The translations under genes were made by a program, and so were the position numbers. From contig OZ024755.1 in NCBI GenBank assembly GCA_964016885.1, positions 31,868,001 to 31,932,000 on the forward strand: a stretch of DNA of 64,000 nucleotides, in the 5' to 3' direction. Each line of letters starts with the position of its first letter. Within the stretch, counting starts at the first letter, position 1. Below, piece after piece: positions 37,472 to 59,853 of the stretch. This DNA comes from Eledone cirrhosa (taxonomy: Eukaryota). Below the pieces are notes generated by a model, which saw only the letters and a program-made list of their open reading frames with translations, was not told where the DNA came from and searched no databases.

Positions 37472-37569
37472 ATATTAAACTATATTTATATATATATACA
37501 ATGATAAACTATATTTATATATATATACAATGATATTAAACTATATTTATATGTATATACAATGATATT

Positions 37570-37813
37570 AAACTATATTTATAAAACCATATTTATTCTA
37601 TTATATATATTTGAAGGGTACCAAAACTTTGGTATGCTTTCATCAGATAAAATACGAAGTGTGTTTTATAAATTTTGACATAACCAAGAAAAATACCTTA
37701 ACGGTTCAAGTTTTCCTTGGATAGTTCGTATTTTATCTGATGAAAGTATACCAAAGTTTTGGTACCCTTGAAATATATGTAATAGAATAAATATGGTTTT
37801 ATAAATATAGTTT
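37570..37813. repeat. Fold-back element (~88-bp arms) flanked by (TA)n
   Basis: 37570-37658 is the reverse complement of 37725-37813 with few mismatches. Confidence 0.9.
37731..37787 (+). ncRNA. Type I hammerhead ribozyme motif
   Basis: Stem I TTTTAT/ATAGAA; CTGATGA; stem II AAG..TACCAAA/TTTGGTA..CTT; GAAA; short AT-rich stem III; cleavage triplet GUA. Confidence 0.65.
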
Positions 37814-37925
37814 CCATTTATTTAATATCATTGAATATTATACTCCAGAAAACCTGTTGATTGCTCTGAATTAGTTATAAACATTTATATTTGTTGAATT
37901 ACCAACAAATTGAATATCCCTTTTG

Positions 37926-39951: not shown

Positions 39952-40346
39952 ATATTGTTATACTTTGGGAGGGTCATGTTGCCAATAAGAAACACACGCA
40001 CCAGTTGCTTTCACTTCAATTTATTATAAATTTATAAATTTATAAATTTACAAATCTACAAACTTATAAGTTTCTGGTTGGTTGGTTGGTTCCACAACCA
40101 GATAGTTGTTTATATATAGTCATAGTCCTTTCGTCACACACTCTGTGACCTCATCAGTGACTGGGGATTCCTTTCTTTGTTTCTGTGCCTTTCCTTTCTT
40201 CTGTCCTATGCCATTTTGTTTCAACCAACCAGAAACTTATAAGTTTGTAAATTTATAAATTTATAAATTTATAATAAATTGAAGTGAAAGCAACTGGTGC
40301 GTGTGTTTCTTATTGGCAACATGACCCTCCCAAAGTATAACAATAT
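39952..40346. repeat. Fold-back element (~125-bp near-perfect arms) flanked by (TA)n
   Basis: 39952-~40087 is the reverse complement of ~40223-40346. Confidence 0.92.
40118..40162 (-). ncRNA. Minimal type I hammerhead ribozyme motif in the fold-back loop
   Basis: Minus strand AGTCA-CTGATGA-G-GTCAC(AGAGTGT)GTGAC-GAAA-GGAC-TA-TGACT: perfect 5-bp stems I and II, minimal stem III, triplet CUA. Confidence 0.78.
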
Positions 40347-42887: not shown

Positions 42888-42972
42888 GGAGGTGAGTTTT
42901 ATTGTAGTACAATAAAGCAATGCAGATATCGGATAAGAAGCACTCTACAGTTTGTAGGACTGGAGTATACAT

Positions 42973-43198
42973 AATATATAAGAACAAAAGATGGTTAAAG
43001 GAGTTCCATGTATTTTATTATGCGCATTTCAAAAACAAATATCATCATGCAATATGTTGATTTAAAACTGTTTTTTAGCCTTCATATCATGTCCTCCTGT
43101 TTTATCTGATGAAAACACAAATATTATTGCATGATGATATTTGTTTTTGAAATGCGCATAATAAAATACATGGAACTCCTTTAACCATCTTTTGTTCT

Positions 43199-43206
<8 letters not shown>
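42973..43206. repeat. Fold-back element (~80-bp perfect arms) flanked by (TA)n
   Basis: 42973-43053 is the reverse complement of 43125-43206. Confidence 0.92.
43100..43166 (+). ncRNA. Type I hammerhead ribozyme motif
   Basis: TTTTAT-CTGATGA-long stem II (AAACACAAATATTAT/ATGATATTTGTTTTT)-GAAA-TGCGCA-TA-ATAAAA; stem III is the palindrome ATGCGCAT; triplet AUA. Confidence 0.75.
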
Positions 43207-43235
<29 letters not shown>

Positions 43236-45209
43236 GTGTGTGTGTGTGAAGTAACAACCAACATGCATAACAAGTGGGATGACAGCGAATAGCTTCAATT
43301 CCTGTTATACACAACACTTTTATTCATTCCCTCACTTGGAAAGGAAACATGCAACCAGCATTTTCAGCCAAATTTTGGAATTGAGCGGCTGTGGAATGCC
43401 ATACAACCTTAAAGGGAGCATCATCATTACAACCTAAGCATGCACCAGAAATGAAAGACCATGTAACTTATGCCTGGAGGGTCTGCTTCATATTTTGTTT
43501 GCTGTCGGTCATCTCATCAATAAGAAATACAAGCTTGTTACCAAATGTGTGTACCAGATATCCAAATTATATCATCTCTTTAGATAAAGTATATAGCTCA
43601 GAGATCAGAAAGTCACTCCAGGTGGAGCCACTACTTCTCTGAATTGAGAAATCACAGCTCTGATACTATGGGCATGTGGTTAGAATGTCTCAGGAAAGAA
43701 TGGCTAGACAGATTTTACAGGCAAAACCAACAGGCAGGAGACATGGGAGTACACCCTGAGCAAGATGGTTGGTTAACATCCATGAGCTTGGCTGGTCATG
43801 CTTGGGGATCAAGCTGGATCAGTTGGAGACAGTTGCTTCTGACAGAATCCACTGGAAGGAGTGTTTGAGGACTCTTACCCCACAACCCTCTCACCTGGTC
43901 TGAGAATTGAACTTGCAACTCACAAATGCGAATCCAACTCTCTAATCACACGCCTTCACTTAATTTACTCTTTCTATATAATCAGTTGTCATATATTGGG
44001 GCTTTAATATCTTTATATTACTTAAGCTTTTGTTTTATTTGGATGTCTATATAACATAGAGTAATTACTGAACCTTACCATTTCATATCAGCTCTCATAC
44101 ACCAAAATCTATCTTCTACTACATACGTGATCTTAAACCAGATGTCTCAAACTCAAGGACTCAAAAGGGCCATTAAGTCCTGGGTAAGAGACACAACAGG
44201 CCAAACATGTAATGAAGATGGGGATATATCTGCAATACAGTAGATAACTGCTATATTTTGTTTTTTTTTGCTTCAAAATAAATACAAATACACATAGTAA
44301 GTGGGATGTGTGAATTAGTACAAAAGTTTCCGTTTCAAATATTCCTTAATTCTGTTTTTACTTTTGGTAAATTCCCTTTTTTCTCTTTTCACTTTTGATG
44401 AATTCCATTTATTCTATTTTGTATTTCATTTTCTTTTTGGTAAATTGTAATAAATTGTATAGTAAACATTATTTAAACAGGGAAAACAAAAGCAAAATTC
44501 AAAGTTATTTATATCATCATCATCAATGTTTAACGTCTATCTTCCACGCTAGCATGGGTTTAGACGGGAATTATCCCACTTGAGGCAAGATTGGTCGTCT
44601 CGCCCGTATAGGACTGTCTGGCAGGTTTTCTACGGCTGGATACCCTTTCTAACACCAATCACGTTTACAGTGTGGACTGGGAGGTTTTTACAGTGTTACC
44701 TACACGGCCACATTACAGCGTGGACTGTGTGTTTTTTTTTGTTGTGACACCTACATGACCTCATTTATTTAGGACTGGATGTTGTGGTAGCAACATAACA
44801 TTACAGAGAAAGGGGTGGTGTTGATGGGGGTGGGGGAGTTGAGGTAGTGGGATGGGGGTGTATATTTGATTAAGAGGTGCCTACTGACTAGGTTTCGCTT
44901 TGTACTTAGGCAAGGCGTGTCTTCTGTATTACTGCGTATCGCCAAAGATCTCAGTCCAGTGACATTGTCTTAGAGAGGTACAAGTGTGTAAGGTCGGAAT
45001 TTATCAAATCGTCCCAGATTTTTCTGGGACTACCTACTCCTTAACTTCCATCAATTTTGATCACCCTGCACTTTTTTATACAGCTGTTGTCTTTCATGTG
45101 CATCACGTGACCATACATACGTAGTCTTCTCTTGAGTAAACAGCATCTGATCCCTCTTATTCCTAATATATATATATATAGTTATGTAATAAACAACATA
45201 AGGTAATTA

Positions 45210-45270
45210 TTTCATTTACCACTGGTTTCTTGAAAGCAAACAAATTTTGCTTTCAATCATCAGAATGAAA
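45210..45270 (-). ncRNA. Type I hammerhead ribozyme motif (minus-strand copy)
   Basis: TTTCATT-CTGATGA-TTGAAAGCAAA..TTTGCTTTCAA-GAAA-CCAGTGG-TA-AATGAAA. Confidence 0.82.
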
Positions 45271-45312
45271 AATTCCTGGTGTATTTATTGACATTGAAAT
45301 ACACCAGGATTT

Positions 45313-45373
45313 TTTCATTCTGATGATTGAAAGCAAAATTTGTTTGCTTTCAAGAAACCACTGGTAAATGAAA
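45313..45373 (+). ncRNA. Type I hammerhead ribozyme motif (plus-strand copy)
   Basis: Stem I TTTCATT/AATGAAA; CTGATGA; 11-bp stem II; GAAA; stem III ACC(ACT)GGT; triplet GUA. Confidence 0.85.
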
Positions 45374-45469
45374 TAATTACCTTATGTTGTTTATTACATA
45401 ACTATTAAGCTTTGTAACCTACATAGAGCACTCTTTTTTCCTGGACCTTTCCGACTGAATTACTTCATT

Positions 45470-45528
<59 letters not shown>

Positions 45529-48739: not shown

Positions 48740-48944
48740 AATAAATAACAGATTAAAGTTTAAGCAAAGAGTCGCTGCTTTCACCCTTAATGGGAAGATC
48801 CCATTAAGGATGAAAGCAGCGATTCTTTGCTTAAACTTTAATCTGTTATTTTAATAAATATTTGCTCTACGGTTCTTATATATTTGATATATATTTATCC
48901 TTATCGAACCCTCTTTGGATTTTAGTCTTCAAATTTATTATTAT

Positions 48945-50421: not shown

Positions 50422-50829
50422 GACCAAAAACTCAACTTCTTTGCTGGCCTTCAGTGTAACTAACCCTACCAAATGCTTACTAGATAGACTCCACCACTAT
50501 GGATATTGCGCAATCTAACAATCTTCCACTCTGGATTAACAGGTCTTCAATGATTGACTGGTTTGATGAAATACATAGAAAGAGTTGCTGTAAGTTCACA
50601 CAACTTGACATTGTGAAATTTTATTCTTTAATTACTGAGCCCCTCCTAATGAAGCCATTAGATTTCAGCTGTAGGCAATAGCTCGATCACTAGAGTGAAG
50701 GTGCATGGTCTAGCGGTTAGGATGTTGGACTCAAGATTATCAAGTCATGGGATCAATTCCGGGACTGTGTTTTTCAGCAAGGCACTTTATTACTTGTTGC
50801 TTTTCATGATAGAACTGAAGCCCCTGTCA

Positions 50830-51035
50830 TTAATCATTTAGCATTTAAACCAGCTAGAATTCTCTCACCTCTTTCTGTTCAAACCGGCTGTAACCAGCCA
50901 CTCATATTGATGTTAAGGTATTGTTCTCAAAGTAAATAATATCAAAATCTCATAGATTCGATATTACTTGAGATAAAGCCTTTACCATGAAAATACAATA
51001 GAAAATATAGAGTAATGTAAATGCTCAAGGGTTAA
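50830..51035 (-). mobile_element. piggyBac-type MITE
   Basis: Family body ending AAATGCTCAAGGG-TTAA; inverted relative to 50222-50421. Confidence 0.78.
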
Positions 51036-52531
51036 AATACCTGAGCAAACCCCTATGAGATATAACCTCATAAGAGGTCAACTAAACCTACATAGGTGTG
51101 AGTTGTAAATTTATTTTGTTTTTCTTTGATCACTGACCTAGATACTAAGATCATCTTGCATGCCTGAAAGTCTCTACTGGCCTTTGACAAATTATTCTGG
51201 ATCCAGAGGAACTAGGCCACACTTTTCAACATACCCATGGGTTGCTTCAGAGGAGCTTTGGAGTTTATCAGAGAAGTTGTAAAAGAAGCTGTAAAACTAG
51301 ATCTATATAAAGGCATCAGGTTAATCGTAACCCATAACTGAAATGGCCACCAACTAGATAAGCTGTAGAAGGACATAATTAATATCTCCAAAGATTTCAT
51401 CCTAAAATTCACTGTCAGTGTCAACATTAACATATTCAATTTCTTAGACACATCAGTTAACCTAGTTACAGGTACCCACAGCCCTTTTAGAGAGCCCAAC
51501 TAAGTTTTACGCTACATTCTAAGGAATATAGCTGATAATATCAGGAAAAGAATCTCTAGCTTATCTTCCAATGAAGAAACCTTCAACTGTACAGTAGAAT
51601 ACTACAGTAAGGCCCTTAGCAAAAGTGGTTTCACGGATATCATTCACTACACACACACACAGACAAGACACCCACAATTCCAGAAGGACCAGAGAAATGA
51701 AGATCATTTCGTATAATTCGCCACATTTCCTGATATTTTCTAAACCTGATTGGTAAGCACTCCTCTTTAGCAATAGATTCATCAAAATTTCCAATAGAAG
51801 TAACATGAAAGTGAACTATAGTTATATTGATAACTTTACCTGTAGTTAATAGTAGTTTAGTACATACTAGCACTCAAAGTTCCACCCCACATTGCAATTG
51901 CTTCACAGTTATGGAAACAAAAGGAGTACCACATCTCTTTCAAAATCTATCTGAAGGACAAAGGAATCATCAACTACTGCATTGACTGATCACTCATTGA
52001 ATCTGCCACATCTTCAAGTCCATCCTCTGTTGAGTAGTGAAGTATAACATTCTAATGCAATTGTTGCATCCTGCTAAATTAGAGCTGATCTCCTCACATC
52101 CTAACCAAAGGAGCCTTTAAGCTTCTCACTTGATAACGACTGATCCACAAAATTTACTTCACCCCATTTACTCCAGAGTTCTGCTATCAACCATGTTTCC
52201 ATTCTGCTGCACTTAACATTCCTGGAGTAATGCCATTCATCCTTGTAAGATTCCACCAGTAAAACTAACCTCACCTGTGCACGCTGAATATTGATCACCC
52301 ATGCAAGACTCTCAATTCTTTGAACAATCCTTGAAAAAAAACCTCCTCCAAACTACCACAAATAGAAAGAGCTCTACTGCAGGCTTTTTATATGCATGCA
52401 TAAATCCTTATCTGTATGTGTCTGTATATGTGTATACTCCCCCACCACTGGAAATAAGACCTGTCCTGCTAACATTTCGTATATGCATGTATATAGACAC
52501 TTATCTTTGTGTATTATGTGGTAATAGATGA

Positions 52532-55862: not shown

Positions 55863-56420
55863 ACTAAATACTCCAGTGTGTTAAATACCTTTTATTGTAG
55901 CCTTCTTCTAGAGAAGGCACTTTGTTAATAGGAAGGCATGACCAATAGTGAATAAGATGGGGAGTGATGGGTAAGAGTGATGGCAGGGAGTCACCTTGTT
56001 CCAAAGCAATCATGATCAGGAAGCAGTGGTGGGAGGGGTCTGATTATGTAAGATAGATGGGAATGGGTCTGCATGGTAGTTGTAGGATGGTGAATAGATA
56101 AACAATAGGAGGGGAACAAGGAAGAGGTGTGCAAGGTGCGCAACATATGGATAGCAGCTTGGGTGGGTGAATAGAATCATGTGGAGAAGAGAGGATGATG
56201 GACAGCAATAGATTATAGTGCAAGAGAGAGAGAGAGCGAGAGAGAGCGATGGTTGGCAGAGGTGGGACATAGGTAAATAGATATATCAGTGAAGTGGGGG
56301 TCAAGGTGCAGTGATGTAAACGTGATGGGCAGGATGTGTATAATCATGCCAGGTACCACTTCTCACTACATGGCAGTGTTATATATATTTAGTTATGTAA
56401 TAAACAACATAAGATAATTA

Positions 56421-56480
56421 TTTCATTTACCAGCGGTTTCTTGAAAGCAAACAAATTTGCTTTCAGTCATCAGAATGAAA
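56421..56480 (-). ncRNA. Type I hammerhead ribozyme motif (minus-strand copy)
   Basis: TTTCATT-CTGATGA-CTGAAAGCAAA..TTTGCTTTCAA-GAAA-CCGCTGG-TA-AATGAAA; first stem II pair is a C/A mismatch. Confidence 0.75.
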
Positions 56481-56492
56481 AAATCCTGGTGT

Positions 56493-56552
56493 TTTCATTC
56501 TGATGACTGAAAGCAAATTTGTTTGCTTTCAAGAAACCACTGGTAAATGAAA
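56493..56552 (+). ncRNA. Type I hammerhead ribozyme motif (plus-strand copy)
   Basis: Same architecture; stem III ACC(ACT)GGT; triplet GUA. Confidence 0.78.
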
Positions 56553-57038
56553 TAATTATCTTATGTTGTTTATTACATAACTAATAAGCTCTGTAACCTA
56601 CATAGAGCACTCTTTTTTCCTGGACCTTTCCGATGGAATTACTTCATTTATATATATATATATATATATATATATCATCATCATCGTTTAACGTCCATCT
56701 TCCACGCTTGCGTGGGTTTGGACGGGAGTTTTCCCACTTGAGGCAAGATTGGTTGTCTTGCTTGTATAGGTCTGTCTGGCGGGTTTTCTACGGCTGGATG
56801 CCCTTCCTAACACCAACCCCGTTTACAGTGTGGACTGGGAGGTTTTTACCGTGTTACCTACACGGCCACATTACAGTGTGGGCTGTGTGTTTTTTGTCGT
56901 GACACCTACACGACCTCATTTGTTTCGGACTGGATGTTGTGGTACCAACATAACTTCACATTGAAAGGGGTAGTGTGGATGGGGTGGGGGTAGTGGGACG
57001 GGGGTGTATTTTTGTTAGAGGTGCCTACTGACTGTAGG

Positions 57039-57650: not shown

Positions 57651-57998
57651 ATCATCATCATTTTCATCATTTCATTTTACGTCCGCTTTTTCCCTGCTTG
57701 CAAGGGTGGGACAGGAACTGATTCTGGCTTGATTTCTACAGCTGGATGCCCTTCCTAACACCAACCTCATTTACAGTGAGTGCTGGGTGCTTTTTTGCCG
57801 TGGCACCTCCACGACCACTTTGCAGTGGAATGATAGGGACCGCAGTCCCTATCATCTCATTTTTACAGCTGAGTAAACTGGAGCAATGTGAAATAAAGTG
57901 TCTTGCTCAAGGAAACAACACATCACCTGGTCTGAGAATTGAACTCACAACCTTTCGATTGCAAGGCCAATGCTCTAACCACTAAGCCATGCGCCTCC
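57651..57998 (-). mobile_element. Full-length tRNA-derived SINE
   Basis: Near-identical to 47123-47460 and 58216-58558. Confidence 0.9.
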
Positions 57999-58215
57999 AT
58001 ATATATATATATAGGATCAATAGAGTGTGATATATGGGATGGTTGTAGTTGATACAGCAATAGGTGGATTAAGGAAATTAATAGCAGCATTTTGGGAACC
58101 TTGCAGTTTGCAGTGACCATTTCCTCCAGTACCACGTGCCACCAGTCGCTGCAGTCCTTTGTGTGTGTGTGTGTGTGTATATATATTATATATATATATA
58201 ATATATATATATAAT

Positions 58216-58558
58216 GGAGGCACATAGCTTAGTGGTTAGAGCATTGGCCTTGCAATCGAAAGGTTGTGAGTTCAATTCTCAGACCGGGTGATGTGTTGTG
58301 TCCTTGAGCAAGACACTTTATTTCACATTGCTCCAGTTTACTCAGCTGTAGAAATGAGATGATAGGGACTGAGATCCCTATCATTCCACTGCAAAGTGGT
58401 CGTGGAGGTGCCACGGCTAAAAAGCACCCAGCACTCACTGTAAATGAGGTTGGTGTTAGGAAGGGCATCCAGCTGTATCAAGCCAGAATCAGTTCCCGTC
58501 CCACCCTTGCAAGCAGGGAAAAAGTGGACGTAAAATGAAATGATGATGAAATGATGAT
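58216..58558 (+). mobile_element. Full-length tRNA-derived SINE
   Basis: A box TAGCTTAGTGG, B box GAGTTCAATTCTC, central TGTGTCCTTGAGCAAGACACTT, (ATG)n tail. Confidence 0.9.
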
Positions 58559-58764: not shown

Positions 58765-58958
58765 AGAACGGAGGAAATGTGGTAAGGAACCAGGTGGACC
58801 ATAACGTACCAAAGTACTCAATACTTAGGGTAGTAGAGTGGGTAATAGGAACGAGTAGGACCCCGACGGCTGAGCTCAAGCCGTTTCGACGGCTAATGAG
58901 TCCAGAATTAGCCGTCGAAACAGCTTGAGCTCAGCCGTCGGGGTCCTACTCGTTCCTA
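58765..58958. repeat. GC-rich fold-back element (51-bp arms) with tail
   Basis: 58846-58896 is the reverse complement of ~58906-58958 with one mismatch; related sequence at 24668-24790 and 61170-61245. Confidence 0.88.
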
Positions 58959-59853
58959 TATATATATATATATATAAATGAAAATGTCTTCCTGTCTGTA
59001 TACATTTCCAGTTTCCATCCGATTTTGTTCAAATTTGATACAGAGGTTATTTAGCATGTCAACATATAGTTTAAATCTTTCTCTCCCTTAAAATAGTCCC
59101 TTAAAAGAGTTCTGGTGTTATTTAAAGATAGCCCTGTGGTGACAACAATGGGCTCTTTTGCTAGTATATATACAATAAAAATCCAGTCTACGAGCAGTGA
59201 ATTGATGGAATTGCTAGAACATCAGACAAGATGCTTTGAGGCATTTGTTTCAGTTATTTGTGTTCTGAGTTGAAATTCTGTGATCATAGAGAGAAATGGA
59301 AATTTGCCATATTTACTCAATTTTCTTCAAAATCCTGGTGTGAGAAAAGCTGCATTCTGAAAAATGTATGCTATCAAGTAGATTTTATTAATATATATAA
59401 ATATATATATATATAGATATATATATGCACACACACCAAGAAGATGACACACGACCAAGCTCACTGGCAATATACCAAAATACAAAAGACCGCCCACCAG
59501 TACAAGCACTGCGACACTGAAAGTAAATATGGCTAGTGAACAGAGACAGTTTAGAGTTTGAAAAAACTCTTCAGTTTGGGGAAGCATATAACAACTTTTG
59601 TAGTGCAGGTGCCATGATAAAAGGTGCCTCTAGTACACTCTGTAAAGTGGTAGTGCTGGTGTCTTGAAAAAATACACACAGACAGTACACCTTGTTAGGT
59701 GTTTGGCATTAGGAAGGGCATCCATTCATAGAAACCATGCCAAATATGGAACATATGTGTAAAATAAGGTCACTCCAACCCATGCCAGTATGGAAAACGG
59801 CTGCAAAATGATGAAATATATATATTATATAATGAATCATTATTTATACTATA

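Follow-up and report, generated by a model that had tools for sequence, protein, structure and literature searches.

Within a 64,000-nucleotide stretch of the Eledone cirrhosa genome (GenBank assembly GCA_964016885.1, contig OZ024755.1; hereafter the window), two hammerhead ribozyme motifs face each other from opposite strands of one rod-like hairpin. This layout raises the question of whether the hairpin is an RNA device or a trace of how a mobile element inserts. An earlier note on this DNA had entertained both, reading the rod as a built-in off state that A-to-I editing could relieve, loosely reminiscent of viroid-like RNAs, while allowing that the symmetry may simply result from inversion during insertion. 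Judged from its sequence, the locus is a 292-bp gene-less remnant of a Hydra-clade Penelope-like element (PLE), and it is one of the ordinary traces that PLE integration leaves behind, published examples of which exist (PMC4209133).

The hairpin consists of two inverted repeat arms, 45178-45286 and 45297-45405, that are complementary at 107 of 109 positions, with mismatches at 45222/45361 and 45273/45310 (Table 1). Each strand carries a complete type I hammerhead motif with the conserved core and three helices expected of an active hammerhead: CUGAUGA and GAAA boxes, a GUA triplet, a 7-bp stem I, an 11-bp stem II, and a stem III of 3 bp with a 3-nt loop. A type I descriptor matched the motifs as the earlier note had drawn them. 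Relatives do not preserve pairing at the first position of stem II, which leaves 10 bp as its conserved length. The 9 nt of stem III form a near-palindrome of the dimer type. With a strict descriptor, the window yielded two matches, and its 30 dinucleotide-shuffled versions yielded none; Rfam at gathering thresholds reported no hammerhead motif at the fold-back. The locus has no ORF.

Table 1. Features of the fold-back locus, in window positions; +1 and later numbers are element positions.
Feature	Position	Strand	Basis or remark
(AT)n target microsatellite, left side	45166..45179		sequence; last 2 nt ambiguous with element end
Short (tail-less) inverted pseudo-LTR copy	45178..45296	minus	BLAST to natural copy
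Type I hammerhead motif	45210..45270	minus	cut predicted after 45217; private C-to-G at loop III centre
Unpaired hairpin hinge	45287..45296	minus	element sequence in left arm only
Long pseudo-LTR copy, +1 to +173, sense to ORF	45297..45469	plus	matches sequence joining ORF leader in tandem copies
Type I hammerhead motif, family-typical sequence	45313..45373	plus	cut predicted after 45366
64-nt "tail", on one arm only	45406..45469	plus	two fixed ends, +109 and +173
CA spacer 45470-45476, then (AT)n target microsatellite, right side	45470..45525		sequence

The two arms are unequal. The 10-nt loop between the repeats is itself element sequence and thus belongs to the left arm; with element +1 set at 45297, this arm spans 10 nt upstream of +1 through +109, and the right arm ends 64 nt beyond the repeat. 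The arms meet at the hinge with a gap of 0, without added bases or microhomology, and the resulting junction occurs once in the genome at no more than one mismatch, the other match being unrelated. Each arm has two private substitutions, making four in the 292 nt; the C-to-G variant in the minus motif is found in 2 of 154 arms. The 41-nt core region of the plus motif has 217 exact copies genome-wide. Both flanks are (AT)n, and no target-site duplication is clearly readable within the TA repeat; an apparent one can be read at another fold-back, L190/L213. Across the family, 59 of 67 short ends run into microsatellite (counted before coordinate duplicates were removed). A CA-containing spacer between the element end and (TA)n occurs at 26 of 58 long ends and at 0 of 47 short ends, which might reflect slipped priming or read-through out of source copies.

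The sequence of the locus belongs to an abundant family. A 174-nt query starting at 45297 returned 1,054 candidate genomic sites, and the 40 that were scored all had 97-100% identity over the full query; a 24-mer of the terminal sequence occurs 5,710 times in the genome. The full-length copy L076 reads, in order, (TA)n, an inverted tail-less pseudo-LTR (pLTR), an ORF, a 3' UTR, the hammerhead, the tail, and (TA)n. Its ORF is 2.1 kb long and broken by frameshifts, and its 3' UTR is long and microsatellite-rich. In tandem copies, the pLTR sequence joins the ORF leader directly, which identifies it as a pseudo-LTR with the hammerhead sense to the ORF. From the other direction, 21 of 30 loci picked by the ORF 5' end have the 3' part of the locus sequence directly upstream, at about -40 according to the BLAST listing. 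In the 3' UTR of one copy, L016, a polypyrimidine tract ending in CAG (1421-1451) lies about 50 nt upstream of +1 and resembles a splice acceptor.

Several features place the parent element among PLEs. Its ORF has reverse transcriptase and GIY-YIG-type motifs by pattern, and it shares a head-to-head inverted 5'-truncated copy, a one-sided tail, and a sense type I hammerhead in the pLTR. The Hydra clade is defined by the motifs RWK, DKT, CxCx5C, CxxC, and CxH (PMC8557442). Pattern matching found these together with YRDD in natural open frames: RWK at 41 and DKT at 118 with DKG absent in the L111 frame, and CxCx5C, CxxC, and CxH at 397, 500, and 530 in the L112 frame. Insertion into (TA)n is likewise a Hydra-clade trait. 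The clade assignment rests on these motifs and on by-eye comparison with published alignments, in which Hydra-1_Obim (PMC8557442 supplement) looks similar both in its protein and in its stem III near-palindrome. This likeness and the repeat landscape together would fit an octopus-like host. The ORF has 2,622 homologues at an E value of 1e-10 or better, all unnamed. Pfam returned nothing meaningful for natural ORF pieces and six homologues, the PDB did not recognise the ORF by sequence or profile, and a single-sequence AlphaFold model (pLDDT 33) was unusable. Among 13 hand-picked subfamily sequences, the hammerhead core is invariant and 12 of 20 stem pairs show double changes, a count inflated by related sequences. 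This combination of invariant core and covarying stems implies that parent elements keep the hammerhead fold, which likely serves them as a weak ribozyme, aided by dimer formation or by protein, in the processing of tandem precursor RNA.

To gauge how common double hammerheads are, we drew a positional sample from the first 100 listed matches of the 24-mer, covering the first 78 Mb of contig C1, and took frequencies from it, since samples picked by sequence or core match favour intact hammerheads. The sample holds 101 anchored arms in 87 units, 42 of which are fold-backs within 700 nt. Thirteen of these span the hammerhead in both arms; six keep both cores, two of the six being one insertion copied by segmental duplication, and in seven a core is broken. 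Scaling from the sample, we infer roughly 300 double-hammerhead hairpins in this family genome-wide.

Arms end at two fixed positions. Among 165 arms, 67 end at or near +109, 63 insertion ends and 22 joins to the ORF lie near +173, and 13 lie elsewhere. The two kinds pair with each other. Among 41 divergent pairs, 27 combine a long and a short end, and none combines two long or two short ends; in the positional sample, 37 of 42 fold-backs are long plus short, four are of other types, and a single short-plus-short pair (L178) breaks the one-of-each rule.

Paired arms also share their variants. At the polymorphic site +83, the two arms agree in 27 of 27 pairs (16 G/G, 11 A/A), and non-majority bases common to both arms number 19, compared with 4.4 +/- 1.3 (maximum 9) in 2,000 random pairings; this comparison used substitutions only and kept all 27 pairs, including L160/L063 with its long deletion. 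Gene conversion between arms could contribute to the common variants, although arms spaced kilobases apart agree too. Two fixed ends, nearly always one of each, and common variants together indicate that the symmetry arises at insertion. The proposal of inversion during PLE insertion, which the earlier note had offered as the plain alternative, is therefore the one that the pLTR identity, fixed ends, shared variants, and long-short pairs uphold.

How could one insertion yield two arms? The fold-back is very probably the remnant of a PLE insertion, in which both ends of the cut (TA)n target likely primed on uncut element RNA and the two copies were joined. The element endonuclease would cut both strands of the TA repeat; reverse transcription would then be primed by one target end at +173 and by the second end at +109. 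Each cDNA would extend toward the RNA 5' end and stop independently, and joining of their 3' ends would produce a head-to-head hairpin. Both hammerheads would be present at this locus because both cDNAs passed +17, and indeed both motifs survive because both arms start upstream of that position.

The arms of other copies bear on this model. The short arm reaches further upstream in L172, L184, L214, L229, L231, and L251, and the long arm does so in L171, L234, L239, and L264. Since either arm can extend further, neither is a copy of the other, and separately primed cDNAs fit best. Moreover, 97 of 101 anchored arms start upstream of the ribozyme cut site, which points to uncut RNA as the template. 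We also considered truncation at the cut site itself: three of the 101 arms start at +69 to +71, with no clear excess. In one fold-back, L182 (G000:C1 near 26134451), both arms start at the predicted cut site (+70/+71), and this copy may derive from cleaved RNA.

The window holds further fold-backs. A second one of the same family, at 56390-56648, carries a hammerhead on each strand and four variants common to both arms, with extra changes in its left core region. Two fold-backs of two other PLE families (37555-37828 and 42966-43213) turn inside the hammerhead, so that each keeps one whole type I motif (plus 37729-37789 and plus 43098-43168) with a palindromic loop III, and the inverted arm keeps a partial motif. 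Short fold-backs with a one-sided extension beside (TA)n, at 39952-40346, 48743-48851, and 58845-58959, are probably more PLE remnants; a hammerhead-like core lies on the minus strand near 40157. Decayed ORF pieces from related Hydra-like elements occupy 50493-51659 and 43276-43500 (tblastn, 27-51% identity), and 57728-58486 is an inverted pair of a tRNA-related SINE-like repeat with a marginal Rfam tRNA match at 58225-58282. Pfam matches for five ORFs of the window were not credible, and no host gene was found among them.

We next consider what a transcript of the locus would do. Computed energies favour the rod over the ribozyme fold by 69-71 kcal/mol in the full transcript and by 64-66 kcal/mol in nascent RNA. 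The rod already prevails in nascent RNA since, on both strands, the antisense copy emerges before the ribozyme, an order that the earlier note had pointed out. Taken alone, the plus motif lies 1.9 kcal/mol above its ensemble and the minus motif 3.7 kcal/mol. Stem III has marginal stability when a monomer forms it as a hairpin (+0.4) and is stable when two copies pair (-8.2), which is the dimer type reported to be weakly active in vitro (PMC4209133).

Editing does not release the ribozyme in simulation. With the ribozyme core and stem adenosines spared and all other rod adenosines edited (inosine treated as G; six draws per level), the rod remains ahead by 38 kcal/mol, and by 15 kcal/mol when every such adenosine is made unpairable. 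Real editing would also strike six essential adenosines. The suggestion that editing could shift the balance thus finds no support, and that of an off state survives in part: by computation the rod does out-compete the ribozyme fold, but it is predicted to act as a lock rather than a switch. On these models, a read-through transcript is predicted not to cleave, as the 109-bp duplex would form before the ribozyme folds, and transcription of the locus would likely yield ordinary dsRNA, open to editing or silencing. RNA initiated within the hinge would be expected to escape the rod.

Nor do the motifs appear to be maintained. In 69 family arms of at least 89% identity, found without using the hammerhead and counting variants below 10% frequency, rare substitutions hit the core at 16 of 740 sites and the rest at 155 of 5,915 (Fisher p 0.54), a family-wide rather than locus-specific test that remains compatible with weak selection. 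Of 59 cores, 47 are intact. After insertion, the core decays like its flanks, with no sign of selection.

These results bear directly on functional readings of the hairpin. It is very improbable that the locus is an ambisense ribozyme switch or viroid-like replicon, in which editing or refolding frees the ribozyme from an off-state rod and both polarities cycle. Complete motifs do face each other in a rod, as in the hammerhead arm of PLMVd (PMC3376415), and the parent motif is constrained, its stems covarying among subfamilies (12/20 pairs). Yet with one motif per strand no unit-length RNA would result, an antisense copy precedes the motif on both strands, full editing leaves the rod ahead, the core is already broken in 7 of 13 comparable fold-backs, and the hinge junction is unique in the genome. 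The viroid comparison drawn in the earlier note therefore reduces to a geometric likeness, given the single motif per strand, the unique junction, and the lack of a sign of selection. Co-option by the host, with the hairpin kept to supply dsRNA, small RNAs, or an editing substrate that silences the PLE family, is slightly more plausible and still very unlikely. Any read-through transcript would fold into a nearly perfect duplex of 109 bp, and PLE copies yield antisense small RNAs in a rotifer (PMC3846280), but nearly half of the sampled units (42/87) are fold-backs, so this locus is not singled out, and its four private changes are consistent with recent insertion and drift.

Two further readings concern how the hairpin came to exist. 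Some hinges do occur at several sites (e.g. L241, L278, L288, L298), as they would if the hairpin itself were copied to new sites as a MITE- or retrozyme-like non-autonomous unit. The recurring hinges, however, lie at a natural palindrome, with different subfamily variants placed symmetrically in their arms; the sole identical pair, L190/L213, has common flanks and is a segmental duplication; and the hinge of our locus is unique, with no retrozyme-like tandem array. We accordingly give self-propagation hardly any credence. An assembly or long-read fold-back artefact is the least probable of all. No public contig among 32 pieces listed bridges the hinge, but two sites distinguish the arms from each other, both arm ends fall at the family-specific points, the flanking DNA is unlike on the two sides, and such units are common genome-wide. 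Priming from both target ends at insertion remains the reading that we prefer.

Where the cDNAs stop may reveal something about their template. Many of the hinges gather on the natural palindrome, 19-25 nt upstream of +1. The base before the G at 22 nt upstream of +1 is the element T in 400 matches, and in the other 58 it is G (51), A (5), or C (2). Of the first 30 non-T loci, 27 carry G; by reading, 13 of these are explained by overlap with the other arm and one by an internal change, leaving 13 unexplained, a count that does not cover ends hidden among the T matches. Several of the unexplained-G arms abut flank DNA. Extra-G arms starting 22 nt upstream of +1 are seen, for example, at L276, L280, L286, and L289, near 1500. 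In full-length L1 insertions, an extra G at the 5' junction has been attributed to the mRNA cap (PMC11702581), and by analogy the extra G here may mark a capped transcription start inside the pLTR, which is suggestive. Our own locus (45178-45469) stops short of the extra-G site.

The palindrome itself shows three recurring hinge forms (L145, L241, L278, L288, L290, L296, L298), which are consistent with two cDNA 3' ends annealing and the product then being trimmed or repaired to one strand or the other. Perhaps, with a likelihood we place slightly below even, the hundreds of small fold-backs in this family record twin priming, from two fixed internal sites, on uncut sense RNA as far as its capped 5' end, with annealing at the near-palindrome there. 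The capped end would lie 22 nt upstream of +1 and leave an untemplated G. Our literature search, which left subscription papers mostly uncovered, found nothing on the PLE family of this locus or on a cap-derived G in PLEs.

Several known systems resemble parts of this picture. Cervera and de la Pena (2014; PMC4209133) described opposite-strand PLE hammerhead pairs 100-700 bp apart and attributed them to truncated PLEs. In those hammerheads helix II is long, position 9 is followed by an unpaired base, and helix III is small and palindromic; their activity in vitro is low and needs dimers. In comparison, about 60 nt separate the starts of the two cores at our locus, stem I (7 bp) and stem II (10-11 bp) are longer, and the family comes from another animal.

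The standard PLE anatomy includes an inverted 5' copy with a one-sided tail of 30-40 nt, and an inverted 5'-truncated copy was noted in Penelope-13_HM (PMC8557442). Within the Hydra clade, Hydra-1_Obim is the nearest named relative: the clade shares with our family RWK, DKT, CxCx5C, CxxC, CxH, the (TA)n target, and a sense-strand hammerhead whose stem III is a 4-1-4 near-palindrome (PMC8557442). The family of the locus is nevertheless distinct from Hydra-1_Obim, with many substitutions by eye and thousands of copies, and it differs in having a long microsatellite-rich 3' UTR and a tail of 64 nt, compared with the 30-40 nt given for PLEs (PMC8557442).

The closest mechanistic parallel is Poseidon, a PLE from Anolis carolinensis studied in vitro (PMC11167929). 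Poseidon cleaves and extends both target strands, and it begins reverse transcription on uncut RNA from a pair of internal sites, one at each limit of the tail; its hammerhead is protein-assisted and dispensable for insertion. The end pattern and uncut template of our family match this behaviour. Poseidon belongs to another clade, however, and its hammerhead and start sites overlap the ORF start (PMC11167929), whereas here they lie about 120-280 nt upstream of it. For head-to-head PLE structures, self-priming on an antisense template has also been proposed (PMC3846280).

Resemblance to circular RNAs is more distant. In Avsunviroidae (the PLMVd arm), hammerheads of both polarities face each other in a long non-cleaving helix, like those at the locus; unlike the locus, these agents replicate as circular RNAs, and their ribozymes cut multimers by folding during transcription (PMC3376415). 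The locus is a linear DNA remnant without a viroid-like unit-length repeat, its motifs being inverted, one per strand. Metazoan non-LTR retrozymes are likewise non-coding and PLE-related with type I hammerheads, but their direct tandem repeats give rise to circular RNAs, and the locus is an inverted pair with no direct tandem hammerhead units (PMC7761336; bioRxiv 10.64898/2026.07.22.740005). Passages of PMC13282606 and PMC12910113 gave nothing further on hammerheads.

Paired-polarity ribozymes in rod-like RNAs should be used with caution as the mark of a viroid-like agent, as this one PLE family should supply roughly 300 such genomic hairpins. The junctions also bear on how inverted PLE insertions form and on whether hammerhead cleavage is used in the process, and they give testable positions. 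If the fold-backs do record priming up to a capped end, they would favour twin priming on sense RNA over antisense self-priming and would place the transcription start inside the pLTR.
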